This document shows, one piece after another, positions 28,204 through 38,964 of a DNA stretch of 64,000 bases. This DNA is from a virus. Positions within the stretch are counted from its first letter, which is position 1, and every line of letters starts with the position of its first letter. The stretch lies in IMG/VR virus record IMGVR_UViG_3300025407_001359. The stretch is one strand, 5' to 3'. A program made the translations under genes and the position numbers. Below the pieces are notes generated by a model. It ran no database searches. It was not told the origin of the DNA and was given only the letters and a program-made list of their open reading frames with translations.

Positions 28204-28794
28204 ATGCCTAATCTAGTACCTATTGTTCTCGAAAAAACCGCCAATGGCGAACGTTCATACGACATATACTCACGACTGTTAAAAGACCGCATTGTGATGC
28301 TGGATACCGAAGTAAACGAGCACACTTCTAGTCTACTGGTAGCACAGTTGTTATTTTTAGAAAGCGAAAATCCCGATGCAGACATCCTATTCTACATTAA
28401 TAGCCCCGGTGGTAGCGTTACAGCAGGTATGGCGATATACGATACACTACAGTTTATCAAGCCTGATGTCAGCACCATTGTGATGGGGCAGGCTTGCAGT
28501 ATGGGCAGTCTACTGAGTACAGCCGGAGCTGCAGGCAAACGATTCATACTGCCACACGCTCGTCATATGATTCACCAACCGTCGGGCGGGGCTCGTGGAC
28601 AAGCAACCGATATTCAGATCCAAGCACAAGAAATCTTGAAAATGAAACATTACTTGACCGAAATTTATGTCAAGCACAACTCTGCAGGCAAAACCTACGA
28701 CGAATTTGCAGCCGATATGGAACGAGACTTCTTTATGAATGCCGAAGAAGCAGTAGCATACGGTTTGGTAGACCGGATCATCACAAAACGGTAA
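28204..28794 (+). CDS. clpP: ATP-dependent Clp protease proteolytic subunit
   Basis: [28 protein letters not shown] (Ser), MIHQP (His), ERDFFM (Asp). Confidence 0.97.
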
Positions 28795-28819
28795 AACGGT
28801 CACAAAAGTTTAATATAAT

Positions 28820-28851
28820 TTGTTGCATTGCGTGATAAATATCAGTATAAT
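28820..28851 (+). promoter_or_regulatory. sigma70 promoter with PhaR-like box and internal TAAATA
   Basis: TTGTTGCATTGCG; TTGCAT-N17-TATAAT; same layout as 24352. Confidence 0.5.
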
Positions 28852-28899
28852 CACTAATAGTACAAACACTAATGATTATACTCGAAAGGAAGTCACACA

Positions 28900-29064
28900 A
28901 TGACAACAATTATACAAAAACTTATCCAGTTTTTTAACTTCACAGGATCAGTAAGCTCTGATCTAGATTCTTACATTACCAGCAAGAATCCACAAAACGT
29001 AGCCGATGTTGAGCGCCTGACTGTTCAATACTTGAGCCGTGGCATCTGCGGGAGAACCGTATAA
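28900..29064 (+). CDS. DUF3563-like small protein (54 aa)
   Basis: Own translation MTTIIQKLIQFFNF...DSYITSKNPQNVADVERLTVQYLSRG...*. Confidence 0.5.
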   Translation: MTTIIQKLIQFFNFTGSVSSDLDSYITSKNPQNVADVERLTVQYLSRGICGRTV

Positions 29065-29246
29065 TGCTATTGCTAATTTCAAAAATCGCCGAATTCCTAA
29101 ACAAGTACGCAGGTAAAACTTGCCGTCACGACTCCTATCTAGGAGGCCTATGATGCGTAAACTTCTAGCAGAGATATACGAAGCAATTCGTTTGGTACAA
29201 GAAGTTCGTGCGGCAGCCATCAAACAAGGTCACTACTGGTACTAAA

Positions 29247-29801
29247 ATGATCATCACTGAATTTTTACCTTGCACTAAATTCAACAAATATGGTGATTGG
29301 CTAAAAAGTCAGAATGACGAAACCAAAGAGTTGTATTTTGGTACAGCCAGCAACGACAACATCATTGACAGTCTAATAGATCGTATCAGCTCCTCATCCA
29401 ACAATCACTATATTCTAGTGGCACGAAATCGCAAAAAATGGGTCGGCACCTTACACATTGCTGTCAGTGGCAAACAGGTAGAATTTGGTGTTATAGTTGC
29501 ACCCGAATATCGTGGCCAAGGCATTGCCAACATCATGTTGGAGCAGGCCTTGATTTGGGCACGTAATCGTGGTTACCGAGAACTGTTTATGCATTGCCTG
29601 GGATGGAACAAGCCAATTCAACACTTGTGCCAAAAACACGGGTTAAAACCCCGCAGTATGTACGGTGATAGCGAAGTGCAAATTGATTTGGATCCTGCCA
29701 GCTGGACCACAGTGGTCAAAGAAATGGGCATTCAGCAACGCAACATATTCCATACTTGGTTGCAAAACTACACCTGGATGTATCAAGAAATTTACGGCTA
29801 A
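29247..29801 (+). CDS. GNAT family N-acetyltransferase
   Basis: VEFGVIVAPEYRGQGIA acetyl-CoA motif; start MIITEF. Confidence 0.85.
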   Translation: MIITEFLPCTKFNKYGDWLKSQNDETKELYFGTASNDNIIDSLIDRISSSSNNHYILVARNRKKWVGTLHIAVSGKQVEFGVIVAPEYRGQGIANIMLEQALIWARNRGYRELFMHCLGWNKPIQHLCQKHGLKPRSMYGDSEVQIDLDPASWTTVVKEMGIQQRNIFHTWLQNYTWMYQEIYG

Positions 29802-29843
29802 CAGCTGATCCTTGTTAAATAATACACAAGGAGATTTTCAACT

Positions 29844-30677
29844 ATGAAAAAACTATTAGCAATTTTAACTTTTGCTGTTGCAGGCTTAACAGCAACAACA
29901 GCCAGTGCTTGGACACAGCGTCAGCCATTCCCGGTACAAAACTGTCAAGTACACGCACCTTACGGTTTTCCACAGTCAGCACGTCAGCTACAACCCTTAT
30001 GCCAACAGGCATATTTGGTAGGTTACGATGCAGCTGCCAAGTTACCTAACTATGTGATGTATGAGCTACTGCCACAGAACGCACTAGGCTGTGTGGCACG
30101 TACCAACGCATTTGCTGCCAACCAATTTGTACCTAACGGTGCTACCCCAGCTGACTATGCTGGTACCGGTTACGACAAAGGTCATATGGCACCAGACGGC
30201 GACTTAAGTTGGGATCCGCAAGTTGAGTACGAAAGTTTTTTAATGACAAATATGTCACCACAAGCCGGTTCTTTAAATCGCGGAATTTGGAAATTGTTGG
30301 AGACTTCTGTCCGCGGATGGTCAGTCCAGAGAAATCAGAGCTACACAGTTATTGCGGGCGGTTTGTATGGTCCTGGCGATAAAACCATTGGTAAAGGTGT
30401 AGTTGTACCACACGGTTTCTACAAAATTGTTATCAACAATCAAACCAAAGAATATGCAGGCTGGGGTTTTCCACACACAGCACCATATCCTAACTTGGGC
30501 AACGATTTGACCAAGTTCCGTGTTCCTGTTGCTACAATTATGCAGGACGCAGGTGTTAAGTTTGCATTGCCACAAGGCGGTGTTGAACTACAGCCCGGCA
30601 AAGAATGGCCAGTGGACTTTGGTGCATTGACCAATGCAAAACGTGCCAAGTGTGGCGCTAACGCTTCTACAGACTAA
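29844..30677 (+). CDS. Secreted DNA/RNA non-specific endonuclease (NucA-like)
   Basis: Signal peptide; DYAGTGYDKGHMAP, FLMTNMSPQ, LNRGIW. Confidence 0.92.
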   Translation: MKKLLAILTFAVAGLTATTASAWTQRQPFPVQNCQVHAPYGFPQSARQLQPLCQQAYLVGYDAAAKLPNYVMYELLPQNALGCVARTNAFAANQFVPNGATPADYAGTGYDKGHMAPDGDLSWDPQVEYESFLMTNMSPQAGSLNRGIWKLLETSVRGWSVQRNQSYTVIAGGLYGPGDKTIGKGVVVPHGFYKIVINNQTKEYAGWGFPHTAPYPNLGNDLTKFRVPVATIMQDAGVKFALPQGGVELQPGKEWPVDFGALTNAKRAKCGANASTD

Positions 30678-30700
30678 TCAACTAACCATTGATAAATACT

Positions 30701-30726
30701 AGGGTAAGGCAACTTACCCTATTTTT
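30701..30726 (+). terminator. Stable GCAA-tetraloop hairpin (terminator or 5' stabiliser)
   Basis: AGGGTAAG-GCAA-CTTACCCT-ATTTTT directly after TAAATA at 30693. Confidence 0.55.
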
Positions 30727-30737
30727 ATGAGTGCATA

Positions 30738-31193
30738 ATGCGATTTAGTGATTTCCAACAACCAAGAAAATTAATCCCAGGAAATATTCCACGAAAATAT
30801 TCTAGCGGTGGTTTTACTTTTAACTTTGATCCAGCCACAAAAGTTATTTCGGTTACCTATGGCGGCAAACGTATAGGTAAGTTCAATTATAAAGGTCTTG
30901 GTATAAACGATTATCAAAATGTTACCGACAGAATCATAAGACAATTTAGCCACTATCAACAAAAAAAGATAGATGCTATAAACGCAAAAAAACAACCATA
31001 TAACCATCCGATACAACCAAATTACACTGATCAAAATAGTTACAACATAGCTTTGCCCGGTGATATTCAAAGCCAGATATTTCAGCAACACGACGTAGAT
31101 ACAGCACAACATGGTGATGTTGATGTAGTAAATCCAGGCAAATGGAGTGCTATAAGAAAAAGACAAAAACAGCAAGATCAAAATGAGATATAA
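30738..31193 (+). CDS. Hypothetical AT-rich protein with MRFSDF N-terminus
   Basis: ORF track; visibly lower GC than neighbouring genes. Confidence 0.6.
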   Translation: MRFSDFQQPRKLIPGNIPRKYSSGGFTFNFDPATKVISVTYGGKRIGKFNYKGLGINDYQNVTDRIIRQFSHYQQKKIDAINAKKQPYNHPIQPNYTDQNSYNIALPGDIQSQIFQQHDVDTAQHGDVDVVNPGKWSAIRKRQKQQDQNEI

Positions 31194-33996
31194 ACAGCTA
31201 CTATCCGAACAACAGTTAGACGAAATTCGTATGAGTCCCGGCTCGTTACGAGCATTTGCTGCCAGCCCCGAAGCTCGAGGAATTATGGCCGGTTTTGAAG
31301 CTGAACTGGTATTTACAGGCCTAGGTGGCGAACCTGAATACGATCAAGATCCCGAACCTGACTACGATGCCGACGAGCGTTGCAGCAGTCTTGATCAGGT
31401 AGTAGAATTTTTCCAAAACGACGAATACGGCTGGGGATTGAGTGATCGTCAAGCTAATCGTTTACGTGAAGATCTAGATGAAAAATACTACGAGTGGTAT
31501 GATTCACAACTGTATGATTCCTGGCGCGACCAACGCGATGACCTGATCAAAGATGCCTGGTTAGAAGAAAAACCTTGGAGTGAGCGCATACACGCCGCCT
31601 TGGTTGATGGACTAGAACTTAGTGACGAACAAGCCGACGCTGTTCAAGCATTGCACGACCGTAGAGAAAAGGGCGAGATCAAAGGTTCAGAAATGAATGA
31701 TACCGAGCTAGAAATGATCAGCCAATACAGCGAAGCTCGTAGCATTGCCGAAGATATTTTAAACGACGATGTTGAACAGACCCTGGACAAAGAAGACGGC
31801 TTCTATGATGAAGTATTAGACCAATTTCGTAACGACTTTTACATTGACGATGACTCGGGTTTCTTCAGTGATGTAGGACTGCGCTGGCTGAGCGACGTGG
31901 CCAACGAATACGATTTGACGTGGCCGGTGGTCACTTACACCGGCAGTAGCAGCGAAGGCGGTTGGAGTGATGAAAATGCCGAACGCTTGGCTGACGACCT
32001 ACACGAACGCTTGGGTGTTAAGACCAAAGTGTCTGGTGGTTACCATTCGGCCACACGTGATGACAAGACTTGGATTTTTGAACCCGACTCCAGCTTGGAC
32101 GCAGACGAATCAGACAACTTGGCTATAGAAATTGTCAGCCCGCCAATGCCGTTAGAGACTTGCTTGCGTTTTATGGAAGACTTTTTTGAATGGGCCGAGG
32201 ACAACGGCGCTTACAGCAACAGCTCAACCGGTTTCCATATGGGCGTGAGCCTGCCACATCGTGGTGGTGATGTTGACTATGTTAAATTGGCCCTGTTCTT
32301 GGGCGACGAACACGTGTTACAGGAATTTGGTCGTGCCGGTAACAGTTTCTGCGAAGCCGCAATGAAAAAGATTCGCAATCGAGTCAAAGGCAACAAAGAA
32401 GCGGTAGGTAGCGCATTGACCTTGATGCGTAGTAATCTATTAGAGTTGGCACAAAAAGCTCTAGAGATCAACAATCACGGATTTGGCAAGTATACCAGTA
32501 TCAATCCCAAAGGCGGTACAGACAGTACACACCCACACAAGGAACGTGGTGCCAAGTACATTGAGTTTCGTAGTGCTGGTGGATCAAATTATTTTGAAGA
32601 CATTGACAAATTAAAAAATACCTTGTTGCGTTATGCCAAGGCCATGACTGTGGCTGCCAATCCGGCTGCTGAACGCAAAGAATACTACAAGAAGTTATAC
32701 AAACTTATTAGTCCACCCGACGGTGATGCCAGTTTGGATTTGTTTGCTAGATTTGCTACCGGCGCTATTTCAAAAGAAGATCTCAAGAAGCAATGGGCTG
32801 AGAAACAGTTAGATGATGAACCCAAGGGCGATTGGAAAGTATACGATGCCAACGGAAAATATATCATTGGACAGGACTATCACGGTTATACAAAATCTGA
32901 AGTATGGGAACGTGCTAAAAAGAAATTAAGTCCCGGCGGCAGTATGGAAGGTTTCCAAAAGGAATATCGAGTATTACCAATGAAGAGTACCACTGGTGAT
33001 TGGGAAGTATACAACAATGACACCGGCGAAACTTTAGAAATCTTACACGGCTACGCAACCAAGGGCGCGGCCGCCGACGCAGTATACGACAAGTATGTGA
33101 CCAACCAGGGCATTGCATTTAATTTACGTCCGGCCGATCCTGAAACTCCAGAGCCAGAATTAACTCCCAGAGCCAAGTTGGCCAAACGTATCAAAGCACC
33201 CAAACCCAATTGGAATGTGGTGTATCGTCCTACTGGTCGTGTGATCGATGAGCTGATTAATGTTTCAAAAGAAGAAGCTCAAAAACTCTTGCACCACGTG
33301 GCCACCTTGCACGACTTTGACAGTATAGATGATCTAGAGCTACATAACCAAGCAGATGTACCAAATTCCAATGACACAGATCCCGAGGATGAACCACACA
33401 AGTGGGAATTTTATCGTGCTGAAACAGGTGCAGTGATTGATACTGTAGACAATGCTTCCAAGAGTCAAGCCGAAATGGTGCGTAGAGATCTTGTGCGCAG
33501 ATACGGTCATCCAGATGACAGCGTTCGTATGCGTACCGTACCTACAGATGCAAGCCGTGAACGTTACGATAGTCGTCAAGAACACAACCCAGTGGTCAAT
33601 CAACCACCACAGCAATTTATAACACAACGTCCTGCCACTGGCGACTACTATGAAATACGTGGCGGTAGCGATAATAGAATCTATGGTTTCTTGCCAACCA
33701 TGCCAGGACAACCATCGCAGTTGCAGACTATAGTTACTGCTGCCAAACAATATGTGAATGACTTGACTGGTAGAGATGATGCGTATATACAATACCGTGC
33801 CGGAGATCCTGTGCAGGCTACAGCACCAAATGGTGTTCCGCTATGGCAAGTGTATGAACGTGACTCAGGACACGTGGTACACGCATTTGCCGATCACGAT
33901 CAACGTAGTGCCTGGTCTACAGCACAAACGTGGTTACGTGATCACGGTGCAGAAGATCCTAGCTTGTTTAGCTTACGTCCAATGATGAGTACATAA
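31183..33996 (+). CDS. Large protein with putative amidoligase (COOH-NH2 ligase type 2) domain and C-terminal repeats
   Basis: GFEAE, EPDSSL, EIVSPPM, STGFHMGVS, KYTSIN, IEFRSAGG; six W-x-V-Y...G repeats. Confidence 0.7.
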   Translation: MRYKQLLSEQQLDEIRMSPGSLRAFAASPEARGIMAGFEAELVFTGLGGEPEYDQDPEPDYDADERCSSLDQVVEFFQNDEYGWGLSDRQANRLREDLDEKYYEWYDSQLYDSWRDQRDDLIKDAWLEEKPWSERIHAALVDGLELSDEQADAVQALHDRREKGEIKGSEMNDTELEMISQYSEARSIAEDILNDDVEQTLDKEDGFYDEVLDQFRNDFYIDDDSGFFSDVGLRWLSDVANEYDLTWPVVTYTGSSSEGGWSDENAERLADDLHERLGVKTKVSGGYHSATRDDKTWIFEPDSSLDADESDNLAIEIVSPPMPLETCLRFMEDFFEWAEDNGAYSNSSTGFHMGVSLPHRGGDVDYVKLALFLGDEHVLQEFGRAGNSFCEAAMKKIRNRVKGNKEAVGSALTLMRSNLLELAQKALEINNHGFGKYTSINPKGGTDSTHPHKERGAKYIEFRSAGGSNYFEDIDKLKNTLLRYAKAMTVAANPAAERKEYYKKLYKLISPPDGDASLDLFARFATGAISKEDLKKQWAEKQLDDEPKGDWKVYDANGKYIIGQDYHGYTKSEVWERAKKKLSPGGSMEGFQKEYRVLPMKSTTGDWEVYNNDTGETLEILHGYATKGAAADAVYDKYVTNQGIAFNLRPADPETPEPELTPRAKLAKRIKAPKPNWNVVYRPTGRVIDELINVSKEEAQKLLHHVATLHDFDSIDDLELHNQADVPNSNDTDPEDEPHKWEFYRAETGAVIDTVDNASKSQAEMVRRDLVRRYGHPDDSVRMRTVPTDASRERYDSRQEHNPVVNQPPQQFITQRPATGDYYEIRGGSDNRIYGFLPTMPGQPSQLQTIVTAAKQYVNDLTGRDDAYIQYRAGDPVQATAPNGVPLWQVYERDSGHVVHAFADHDQRSAWSTAQTWLRDHGAEDPSLFSLRPMMST

Positions 33997-35516
33997 TGAG
34001 ATTCTTAGAATTTGCACCCAGTCCTGAACGTGACGACGATGAAATGCCCAACCAGCTGCTGATATTGGCCAATCGCTGGTGGAATGCCACAGATGAACAA
34101 CCGCAAATTGAGCACGTGTTAAACAGTCTTGGCTGGAGCATACATCAAGTCGAAAGTGAAGATGATGCTGTTCAACTACAGCATCGTGATGGTACTACTT
34201 ACTTTATTAGTGCTGACGAATTTGATCCAGACTTATTTGAAATCAGTGACGAGTTAAGACGTAATTACTTGCACCGTGCTGGTCAGCAGGTTGATCGTAG
34301 ACTTGACCGTATGGCACAAGCACGTGATCGTCTCGACAAGGGTTACGAAATCTATCACGCCGATCGTCCAGCTGGCGGCTCACAAATAGTAGATCGCTTT
34401 GAAGCAGATACTCCTGCTCTTGCAAGACGCTATTATGAACGGTTTATTCAAGATTATGATAGTGATGTAGACTTTGATCTACGCTTACGACGTGCTACTG
34501 GTATCCTAGAAACTTTGTTAGCTCTTGAATCCGGCGATTGGTTGCTAGCTGAATCATCTCAAGGTGTTGAAATTAAAAAAAGCAGTTTGTTTGATCAATC
34601 GCTAGTAACAAAAGCTCAATCGGCTCCGGGAATATCAGATAAAATAAAAGAATTTTTAAACTTTAGAATAAACAATCCTGGACGAGTAATAGGTAACGAC
34701 AAACCGTTTGCGTCAGCTGGTCCAATAGCACGTGCTTTACCAAAATTGCGTCATTATCATCTAACTAGAGATTTGAGTTTGTTTTATTCTATGGAAGGTC
34801 GTGCCCCTGCTGTTATCAAATTGTACGGAGTATTCAGTCATAGCGATAGCGGAACAGGTACACCGGGCAATATCAACAAACAAAAAAGTTTTGCACAGCA
34901 ATTGATTAATCAACCTGTAAATGAATTAACCTTGGTTCCTACAGTGGCCAAAAGCAAGCGTGAGCACTTAGACGTTATGCCTAACGATGGCCGACCTATC
35001 CCCAAAGGTGATGAAACCGAATACCTAGGTGACTTGGTAGCCGAGATGGGCAATGGATATCAACTATGGTCGTGGACCAGCCACGGTACTGTTACTTACT
35101 ATGTGTTTGATACGGCGACACGTCGTTGCCAACTGGGCACCACCGGTCGCCCGTACAAGACAAACCGTGACAGTTTTATCATACAAGGTGTTTATTCAGG
35201 TCCACGCAATCGTTATCGTGCTGCTGATCTATATGCTTTCCTTGTACTCAATCGTGGCTTAACCTTGGTATCAGATTACAAACAAAGTGCTGGTGGCTAT
35301 CGCGTGTGGCAAGAATTACAACGTCGCTATGGTCGTCGGATAAACATACACGGTTTTGATACACGCACCGATGAACCAGTAAATGTATCAGCTGATCCCG
35401 AAGATGAGCCCGATACACACGTGGATCGTGATGTAGTTAAACGTGCCGGTCCTGCTATGAAAAAGGAACTGGGTTCTATCAGTAGAGACCTACGTTTTGT
35501 GGCAAGTGCAAGATGA
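33996..35516 (+). CDS. Multidomain protein with RelE/YafQ-like and GNAT-like domains
   Basis: VEIKKSSLF...DKPF...LRHYHLTRDLSLFY...LYGVFSHSD; C-terminal AADLYAFL...LVSDYKQSAGGYRVWQEL. Confidence 0.55.
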   Translation: MRFLEFAPSPERDDDEMPNQLLILANRWWNATDEQPQIEHVLNSLGWSIHQVESEDDAVQLQHRDGTTYFISADEFDPDLFEISDELRRNYLHRAGQQVDRRLDRMAQARDRLDKGYEIYHADRPAGGSQIVDRFEADTPALARRYYERFIQDYDSDVDFDLRLRRATGILETLLALESGDWLLAESSQGVEIKKSSLFDQSLVTKAQSAPGISDKIKEFLNFRINNPGRVIGNDKPFASAGPIARALPKLRHYHLTRDLSLFYSMEGRAPAVIKLYGVFSHSDSGTGTPGNINKQKSFAQQLINQPVNELTLVPTVAKSKREHLDVMPNDGRPIPKGDETEYLGDLVAEMGNGYQLWSWTSHGTVTYYVFDTATRRCQLGTTGRPYKTNRDSFIIQGVYSGPRNRYRAADLYAFLVLNRGLTLVSDYKQSAGGYRVWQELQRRYGRRINIHGFDTRTDEPVNVSADPEDEPDTHVDRDVVKRAGPAMKKELGSISRDLRFVASAR

Positions 35517-35869
35517 GAGCTAAAGAATTTCAAACAGTTCCAGCTGAAAAAATCTTAGACTACGTGAAACGCACACAAGGTGACGGCCATTTTCATATGG
35601 ACCATCTGATTACCGATCACCCCAATTGGCGCCTGACCCAGATACCATTGAAAAAATTACGCATTCCTGGCACAGATTCAGAACAGGCGGATCCATACAA
35701 TCGCGTATTAGATACCAACATAGATTATGCTGACAGTCTAGATCCTGCGGATATTCGGCGTCGTCCTATTGTGGTAGATACCAATGGTGTTATAATAGAT
35801 GGCAATCATCGTGCCTATCAAGCACATCAATTGAAATGGCAGTCAATTCCTGCTTACGTACCTGCATAA
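35513..35869 (+). CDS. ParB/Srx-like N-terminal domain protein
   Basis: PIVVDTNGVIIDGNHRAYQA. Confidence 0.7.
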   Translation: MRAKEFQTVPAEKILDYVKRTQGDGHFHMDHLITDHPNWRLTQIPLKKLRIPGTDSEQADPYNRVLDTNIDYADSLDPADIRRRPIVVDTNGVIIDGNHRAYQAHQLKWQSIPAYVPA

Positions 35870-38496: not shown

Positions 38497-38505
38497 AGTA
38501 TAAAT

Positions 38506-38592
38506 ATGATTATGACATATTTAGCCTGTTTGATCGCTGTAGCAGTTTTACTCTATGTAATGATAGAGATAAAAAACTGGTTGGATTTTTAA
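38506..38592 (+). CDS. 28-aa hydrophobic peptide
   Basis: MIMTYLACLIAVAVLLYVMIEIKNWLDF*; TATAAATA abuts the ATG. Confidence 0.4.
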   Translation: MIMTYLACLIAVAVLLYVMIEIKNWLDF

Positions 38593-38598
38593 AGAATT

Positions 38599-38914
38599 GT
38601 TGTAACTCCTTTAGAGTGAAGGCATTGCGGACGTGGGTGCGATTCCCACCACCTCCACCTAAACGTATTGTTGATCTGGGACACGAAGTCGTGCAGTTAG
38701 TCTAAGATCCCATTGTTTAGTGGGTACACAGGGGCAGATCCTGTACAGTATGTTTAGTTGGGGGTGACTAGTTTCGACGTGGTGAGATAGCAACGAAGGC
38801 AACAGGACAGAGCAGTCCAAAAAACTAAAAAAAGTAAACGCAAACGACTCACAGTTCGCATTGGCAGCCTAAGGGCCGCCTAGGGCAGGAAATGCCTCGT
38901 AACAGAAACAACCA
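38599..38914 (+). ncRNA. ssrA: Circularly permuted (two-piece) tmRNA; tag ANDSQFALAA
   Basis: Acceptor piece 38599-38659 (T-arm GTGGG-TGCGATT-CCCAC, CACCTCC-A-CC) precedes coding piece starting GGGGGTGACTAGTTTCGAC at 38760; G3:U70 pair; tag ORF 38840-38872. Confidence 0.92.
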
Positions 38915-38939
38915 TTGTGTTGCCTAAAAACAACACCTT

Positions 38940-38964
38940 AAACCCCCTGAAAATGGGGGTTTTT
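38940..38964 (+). terminator. Rho-independent terminator after tmRNA
   Basis: AAACCCCC-TGAAAAT-GGGGGTTT-TT. Confidence 0.85.

Follow-up and report, generated by a model that had tools for sequence, protein, structure and literature searches.

How does a phage handle a toxin-like ribonuclease (RNase) that lies in its genome with no antitoxin beside it? The question is raised by a protein of 506 amino acids (aa), encoded by an open reading frame (ORF) that is open throughout from 33996 to 35516 (+ strand) in a stretch of 64,000 nucleotides from the virus record IMGVR_UViG_3300025407_001359 of IMG/VR, hereafter the window. The first-pass annotation of this DNA had described the protein as carrying a RelE/YafQ-like RNase domain and a GNAT-like domain separated by hydrophobic-x-Glu motifs, and had linked the RNase to a phage transfer-messenger RNA (tmRNA) 3 kb away. 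The window comes from a virus contig of 157.9 kb with a completeness rating of 43%, which corresponds to a genome of ~350 kb, and the source is an uncultured T4-related jumbo phage of about that size. From comparison with its relatives, we give an even chance to the view that the 506-aa protein is a capsid-addressed, protease-processed effector polyprotein with modular cargo.

Neither the whole protein nor its parts matched Pfam, PHROGs, NCBIfam or PADLOC, and a phmmer search of the whole protein against PDB returned noise only. Its organization emerged from a homologue search with the 506-aa query that retrieved 461 metagenomic proteins, of which the best 120 listed, together with pairwise alignments, were used for mapping modules. 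Homology breakpoints divide the ORF, on the + strand throughout, into modules A-B-linker-C-D. Module A (residues 1-82; 33996-34241) ends in DLFE (79-82), and module B (83-172; 34242-34511) is a conserved helical/linker module that starts with ISDELRR and ends with TGILE. The linker, TLLALESGDWLLAE (173-186; 34512-34553), is a segment of the type h..h...W-h-x-E (h, hydrophobic) that ends in the candidate site LLAE. Module C (187-310; 34554-34925), the predicted RelE/YafQ-fold RNase domain, ends in PVNE (307-310), and module D (311-506; 34926-35513), probably derived from a GNAT, completes the protein.

Judging from the architectures of relatives, the four modules are shuffled independently of one another. 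Module A occurs with other C-terminal partners (P0002-P0006 and P0115-P0120, the latter joining A+B to other C-termini), and module B mostly stands straight after a short N-terminal leader. B+D without other modules (P0015, 294 aa), A+B+D, and A+GNAT+B+D (P0005) are all found, as are B+cargo+D proteins in which the cargo is a GNAT, a dCMP deaminase, DUF6934, DUF6886 or a ParB-like module (the last in L016 and L021, and related to a separate gene downstream of the window ORF). Module D is C-terminal in 119 of 119 fused relatives, a set retrieved with a query whose largest conserved part is module D itself. It also exists as a stand-alone gene of ~199 aa in dozens of phage contigs, and module C stands alone in most of its representative clusters. 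The same B-C-D fusion was seen in other samples (P0001, L022, P0007). In one relative (P0076; L008:9611-10594), module B is shrunk to ISDELR-LRRSTGIME, its ends joined and its middle deleted, indicating that recombination takes place within modules besides at the joints.

The identity of module C is better supported than that of module D. The family counts 267 representative relatives, i.e., clusters at 50% identity, and its alignment (A1) comprises 92 sequences, with a profile over residues 177-307. This profile matches the whole length of Helicobacter pylori HP0892 (E 0.002), as well as HP0894 and Escherichia coli YafQ, and 19 of the 92 sequences match Pfam YafQ_toxin (best E 5.9e-6). An AlphaFold model built from the family alignment reached a predicted local distance difference test score (pLDDT) of 90.8 and a predicted template modelling score of 0.83; a single-sequence model (pLDDT 40.8) was set aside. 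When the alignment-based model was compared with PDB by Foldseek, the top matches were YafQ of E. coli and Vibrio cholerae, followed by YoeB, HP0892/HP0894 and RelE (E 4.5e-5; template modelling (TM) score by target 0.69-0.80), and more than 25 RelE-superfamily structures, YafQ first and the RelE domain of Cami1 included, matched at probability 1.00. A search of the ESM Atlas concurs. The modelled domain has the RelE/BECR fold, with N-terminal helices packed on an antiparallel sheet, and the YafQ-like pattern in its sequence is real and well above chance, so that the RelE/YafQ-like middle domain of the first-pass annotation is borne out by the family profile, by the Pfam matches of relatives and by the fold.

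An alignment of hidden Markov models points to His253, His255, Asp259 and His282 (34752-34841, + strand) as candidate catalytic residues. The last three align with His60, Asp64 and His86 of HP0892, which presumably correspond to His63, Asp67 and His87 of YafQ, where we take the catalytic set to be His50, His63, Asp67 and His87. Among the 92 sequences, the four columns are conserved in 84 (His253), 71 (His255), 87 (Asp259) and 92 (His282); His282 and Gly286 are invariant, and His253, Asp259, Tyr264, Asp235 and Phe220 are near-invariant. This conservation suggests that module C is likely to be catalytically competent. It shares the fold and, at the profile level, a likeness in sequence with YafQ, HP0892, HP0894, YoeB and RelE, members of the RelE/ParE BECR-fold superfamily that act as mRNA interferases dependent on the ribosome; candidate equivalents of YafQ His63, Asp67 and His87 are part of this likeness. 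Unlike the free toxin of ~90 aa, module C is embedded in a 506-aa phage polyprotein, has Lys236 in place of YafQ His50, and adds His253 and a conserved C-terminal helix of ~25 residues (GTGxPxN..KQK..NQ) that has no counterpart in YafQ. Its family is phage-borne, and the member in the window is missed by the Pfam YafQ model (PF15738).

Module D is 70-88% identical across relatives, and its tail, R[FL]VAS, is invariant. Its kinship to GNATs is drawn from several partial lines of evidence. In an ESM Atlas model (whole-protein pLDDT 0.59), module D has TM scores of 0.58-0.68 to phage GNAT-like clusters. It also aligns with the cargo domain of a relative (P0069) that bears an RGRGLG loop (BLAST E 6e-6; hhalign probability 81.7%, E 1.1e-5); this loop fits the GNAT motif-A pattern, and the P0069 cargo domain itself has no Pfam match. 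The alignment of module D with a Pfam-verified GNAT cargo is weaker (P 0.0046). Searches of module D against Pfam and NCBIfam gave no GNAT match, and a sequence-profile search of PDB returned only a spurious stretch of beta-lactamase. Moreover, its cofactor loop invariably reads SGP-(K/R)-N-x-(Y/F/V/T)-(R/K)-A-A, which departs from GNAT motif A (Q/R-x-x-G-x-G/A) because it lacks Gly at the fourth position and has three extra residues. These comparisons support a GNAT-like, GNAT-derived domain with a degenerate acetyl-CoA loop; the label "acetyltransferase" is not established. The GNAT-like part of the earlier description draws support from the ESM Atlas and hhalign results, on weaker evidence than for module C and with a cofactor loop that is degenerate.

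What argues for processing is the nature of the joints. The boundary motifs are DLFE (79-82), GILE (169-172), LLAE (183-186) and PVNE (307-310), and four of the six [LIVM]xE sites in the protein thereby fall exactly on module borders that were set independently by homology breakpoints. In the 119 fused proteins, the residue just before module D (P1) is Glu in every case and P3 is L, V, I or M in 115, while P2 and P4-P6 vary with the preceding domain. Likewise, W-x-h-x-E stands right before the RNase core in 24 of 24 relatives. The hydrophobic-x-Glu motifs that had been noticed at the module borders are strengthened by both counts. Furthermore, stand-alone homologues of the modules have N-terminal leaders that match the joints at E82, E172, E186 and E310: stand-alone D proteins start MFLSE/IT, MRIAE/LT, MKLKE/IT or MFINELFLNE/IT (the slash marks the border), and module B is preceded by MFISELFLDE/IS, by MRFFE/IS, or internally by DLFE/IS. 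A full internal leader at a joint is rare (2 cases).

The leaders of stand-alone modules are of the types MRAxEFxxE, MFIxELFxxE and MFLSE, and the class M-[RF]-x-x-E-[FL] is found at the start of 126 of 177 family proteins. To this class belongs the leader-like tag of the window protein, MRFLEFAPSPE (33996-34028, + strand), and the neighbouring 118-aa gene starts with the leader MRAKEFQTVPAE. All four Ala codons and both codons each of Glu and Phe are used in MRAxEF starts, which indicates selection on the peptide and not on the DNA. Each genome has few tagged genes, and these cluster at this locus. The leaders resemble the capsid targeting sequence (CTS) of T4, MKTYQEFIAE, which is removed by a single cut of the prohead protease (PMC8442874), and cleavage after Glu, within an x-X-E motif, is common to the proteases of T4, phiKZ and SPN3US (PMC5694885).

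Is such a protease available to these phages? Peptidase_S77, Gp23 and Portal_T4 were searched for in the contig of the window and in five related fragments, and none was found, because those genomes are partial. Two complete relatives carry the D gene, G006 (356,865 bp) and G007 (343,632 bp), and both encode a Peptidase_S77 (E 3e-25 and 1e-27, respectively) followed by a scaffold-like gene and by Gp23 (E 5e-99 and 3e-100), in the order of T4. G006 is syntenic with the window, through ClpP, a RimI-like GNAT, Endonuclease_NS, the 937-aa gene upstream of the polyprotein, the polyprotein and ParB as well as further genes, with identities of 33-86%. Thus the clade, as represented by these two complete members, encodes a protease of the T4 gp21 type by profile match. 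The N-termini of the two Gp23 proteins contain LAE/N or LKE/N, at roughly what we take to be the cut position in T4 gp23; this serves as a consistency check only.

One close parallel may be T4's internal proteins (IPI, IPII, IPIII) together with Alt, which bear a CTS and are processed by gp21. They share with the clade a short N-terminal tag of like sequence (EF-I/V-x-E), a cleavage-type motif of the hydrophobic-x-Glu form and a small cluster of tagged, hypervariable genes, and homologues of gp21, gp22 and gp23 exist in the clade. Unlike in T4 internal proteins, the motif of the clade recurs between the modules of single proteins, so that one gene would give several products; and whereas the T4 internal proteins are small and basic, the cargo here would consist of predicted enzymes (RNase, GNAT, ParB, deaminase). 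Multiple cuts have a precedent in the inner-body/ejection proteins of phiKZ, 201phi2-1 and SPN3US, head proteins cut after Glu at several sites whose fragments are kept and ejected (PMC5694885). That system (protease gp175/gp245, motif S/A/G-x-E) belongs to another lineage, in which P3 is A, S or G as opposed to L, I or V here, and its propeptides are long compared to leaders of ~5-10 aa. As to cargo, polyvalent proteins that are packaged in virions and bear RNases of the BECR fold, GNATs or ParB domains have been predicted (Iyer et al., 2017; PMC5512222). The window protein has in common with them several conflict-type effector domains (BECR-fold RNase, GNAT, ParB) per phage polypeptide, mosaicism and a predicted delivery with the DNA. 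It differs in having no zincin metallopeptidase and no MuF or portal fusion, in a locus that is not beside head genes, in a processing that would rely on the capsid maturation protease acting at the joint motifs, and in an RNase of the RelE/YafQ clade instead of the PBECR (colicin D-like) clades. RelE-family toxins that are fused or multidomain have been catalogued mostly in defence contexts (PMC11980606), and our literature search found no paper in which T4-related jumbo phages carry a RelE/YafQ domain within CTS-tagged, Glu-jointed polyproteins.

We infer the following course of events. The polyprotein would be made late in infection and carried into the prohead by its N-terminal tag, where the gp21-type prohead protease of the clade would cut after E82, after E172 and/or E186, and after E310. 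The freed RNase domain of ~14 kDa and the GNAT-like domain would then enter the next host along with the DNA, and there the RNase would most likely cut ribosome-bound mRNA in the fashion of YafQ. Before processing, with 186 residues on one side of it and 196 on the other, the RNase domain is probably barred from the ribosomal A site. Being kept off ribosomes in this way during late synthesis, it would have in the fusion itself a replacement for the missing antitoxin.

Several observations weigh against a packaged and processed effector. The six [LIVM]xE sites are no enrichment overall, as shuffled versions of the 506-aa protein have a mean of 6.0, and the information lies in their placement alone. 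Before module D, the conserved h-x-E could be nothing more than the opening residues of D itself, and the tag of the window protein, MRFLEFAPSPE, fits the leader consensus loosely. Some tagged relatives carry housekeeping-type enzymes (HAD phosphatases, deaminases) that need not be virion proteins. At 43% completeness, the contig of the window is without head genes or protease, the latter being deduced from relatives, and tblastn found no cultured relative with module D. Module C of the window taken alone falls below detection by Pfam YafQ_toxin and has no NCBIfam match, Lys236 occupies the position of YafQ His50, and the near-invariant Lys224 of the family is Arg. Finally, an injected mRNA interferase, for which no inhibitor was identified, would put the early translation of the phage itself at risk.

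Part of this list would be accounted for if the protein were a cytoplasmic multidomain enzyme, unpackaged and unprocessed. Its leader and h-x-E joints would then be linkers, or scars that recombination left in a hyperplastic locus, and its RNase would serve for host shut-off or for turnover of phage or host mRNA, in a manner comparable to RegB. The locus lies among accessory genes and not among head genes, its neighbours being ClpP, a GNAT, a nuclease and the tmRNA; tagged relatives have HAD phosphatase-like and deaminase cargo, h-x-E sites show no overall enrichment, and the T4 BECR-fold RNase RegB provides a precedent (PMC5512222). We nevertheless regard this explanation as doubtful, since the tag is conserved as a peptide despite synonymous codon variation, P1 is Glu at 119 of 119 joints before D whatever domain precedes, and the tag is similar to the T4 CTS in a clade where a gp21-type protease exists. 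Moreover, an unrestrained RelE-type RNase in the cytoplasm would damage the phage at the time of its late protein synthesis.

A different form of restraint is offered by toxin-antitoxin systems. The absence of an adjacent antitoxin, as claimed in the first-pass annotation, is correct for this locus: no homologue of the partner family described below is present in the 158-kb contig, and a search ahead of the RNase domain for an antitoxin concealed in another reading frame met only short non-acidic ORFs and no nested candidate. The antitoxin-first bicistronic operon of the YafQ type is not seen in the window, and the DinJ-type antitoxin of YafQ has no counterpart beside module C. What that claim leaves out is that the stand-alone homologues of module C do have a partner. 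All seven leaderless stand-alone homologues examined, that of Ralstonia jumbo phage RsoM2USA included, have an overlapping or abutting upstream ORF of 48-65 aa with an isoelectric point of 4.1-4.8 (L023:3823-4008, L024:3804-4001, L001:3837-4013, L048:1050-1247, L049:1359-1508, L051:1315-1500 and L052:2-148). The seven have in common a leader-like start, M[RK][IL]xE[IV], and a conserved W-S/T motif, and three that were compared by BLAST are significantly similar. A word-based homologue search with the partner retrieved the partner itself only, and the family, with the pattern M[RK]IxEI...NDTG..EWSxPM, is uncatalogued. It is unrelated to the DinJ type, and may be either an antitoxin or a capsid-tagged escort. 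In one of these phages, the RNase/partner pair lies 1.5 kb downstream of genes for a T4 Rnl1-type RNA ligase and a PNKP-like kinase/phosphatase (L024:186-2278), an order that places RNA-repair enzymes near a predicted RNA-cutting toxin.

In several relatives (P0133, P0142, P0144, P0251), the whole partner is fused to the RNase, while in the fused forms of the jumbo clade only a helix-Trp segment is left, followed by h-x-E, which in the window reads TLLALESGDWLLAE before the SS that opens module C. The linker may therefore be a remnant of the acidic partner, although the alignment of the two by hhalign is weak (P 8.8e-4, probability 23%). Accordingly, one could regard the window protein as a fused toxin-antitoxin-like module that functions in inter-phage competition, superinfection exclusion or abortive processes, with the linker and flanking modules autoinhibiting the RNase until a trigger arrives and with no role in the capsid. 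The acidic partner found with 7 of 7 leaderless stand-alone homologues, the whole-partner fusions and the existence of fused RelE-family toxin-antitoxin genes elsewhere (PMC11980606) would agree with it. We consider it improbable, given the fact that the homology between linker and partner is weak, that the partner itself bears a leader-like tag, and that the jumbo-clade fusions swap the C-terminal part of the partner for an h-x-E joint, which a cleavable pro-segment fits better. Returning to the packaged polyprotein, we can thus propose, tentatively and with less confidence than in the packaging as such, that an mRNA interferase is shipped as a zymogen: the polyprotein would be barred from the ribosome, the RNase freed by the maturation protease in the ribosome-free prohead and injected to arrest host translation, and the former antitoxin or escort, TLLALESGDWLLAE, would now be a cleavable pro-segment, with spatial and proteolytic control in place of toxin-antitoxin control.

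The RNase might alternatively be tied to the nearby tmRNA. RelE-type stalling is relieved by tmRNA in E. coli, and the first-pass annotation had proposed ribosome-dependent cleavage of host mRNA together with ribosome rescue supplied by the phage. In such a coupling, the RelE-like RNase would yield non-stop mRNAs and stalled ribosomes, for whose rescue the phage would specifically carry its tmRNA. Both components are real. The RNase fold has been described above, and a two-piece tmRNA of the beta type with the tag ANDSQFALAA is located at 38546-38963 (+ strand; Rfam beta_tmRNA, 137.8 bits at 38546-38940), preceded by a perfect T4-late-type TATAAATA at 38499, about 45-70 nt upstream. It is their coupling that lacks support, as a beta-type tmRNA is present in both complete relatives, G006 (E 4e-47) and G007 (E 3e-40), neither of which has a homologue of module C anywhere in its genome, and as the tmRNA adjoins the D gene in relatives whose polyprotein is without C (L006, L008, L015, L017, L019). 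This distribution makes the tmRNA a trait of the clade and module C a sporadic cargo. The proximity that alone had hinted at a partnership of RNase and tmRNA rescue is thus not backed by co-occurrence, the coupling is unlikely, and rescue would be a possible side benefit. The tmRNA tags of related phages read ANDSVYALAA, ANDEQFALAA and ANDSQFALVA; in L005:4652-5084, ARAGORN calls a tmRNA with an unusually long tag of 33 residues, which may reflect a mis-called resume codon; and in L006 a tRNA with the amber-reading anticodon CTA (L006:14698-14774; tRNA-Pyl according to ARAGORN) lies downstream of both D gene and tmRNA, at a distance of ~4 kb.

A module C that binds RNA or ribosomes but is catalytically dead, with the protein acting chiefly through its GNAT-like module, would suit Lys236 at the position of YafQ His50, Arg in place of the family Lys224, the lack of a Pfam YafQ_toxin match for the window domain and the much higher conservation of D than of C, but is very improbable given that His253, His255, Asp259, Tyr264 and His282 are all kept, that catalytic sets vary widely among RelE-family members and that the cofactor loop of D is itself degenerate.

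The 506-aa gene is one of four. Its ATG overlaps the stop codon of the upstream 937-aa gene (TAATG), its own stop codon shares an ATGA with the start of the downstream 118-aa gene, and a 151-aa gene extends into the 5' end of the 937-aa gene; because of these overlaps the four form one translationally coupled unit. The two upstream genes occupy 30738-33996 (+ strand), the 151-aa product starting MRFSDF and the multi-module 937-aa product MRYKQLLSEQQLDE. The 937-aa protein (31183-33996) contains an Amidoligase_2 core (E 1.5e-5) and five repeats of ~45 aa opening with W-x-V/F-Y at residues 551, 607, 677, 741 and 888. A likeness by eye between these W-x-V-Y repeats and the YEIYHADRP... part of module B was not significant by BLAST and was dropped. 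The downstream 118-aa gene (35513-35869, + strand) encodes a ParB-like nuclease. A T4-late-promoter-like GATAAATA lies 47 nt 5' of the first gene of the operon (30691-30727, + strand) with one mismatch to TATAAATA, and is followed by a GC hairpin with a T-run that ends the nuclease gene; it fits, if weakly, with late timing of the operon. Ahead of the operon (28204-30677) are a canonical ClpP, a RimI-like GNAT that starts MIITEF and a signal-peptide Endonuclease_NS, and parts of this run recur ahead of the operon in relatives L008, L010, L015, L038 and L039. Among cultured phages, megablast of the locus gave no match and tblastn found only gp114 of RsoM2USA, weakly and for module C only.

Whatever its mode of action, module C extends the YafQ family by a large phage-borne branch, as yet uncatalogued, that comprises 267 clusters at 50% identity. 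If the packaged and processed polyprotein is real, a clade of environmental jumbo phages would be using T4-type targeting and maturation proteolysis to obtain several injected enzymes per gene, and the combination of Glu-ended joints with a leader of 5-10 aa would become a rule by which virion cargo, and the ends of the mature proteins, could be predicted for uncultured phages. In that case a classical toxin of toxin-antitoxin systems would have been turned into an injected weapon, ruled by compartment and proteolysis and not by an antitoxin.

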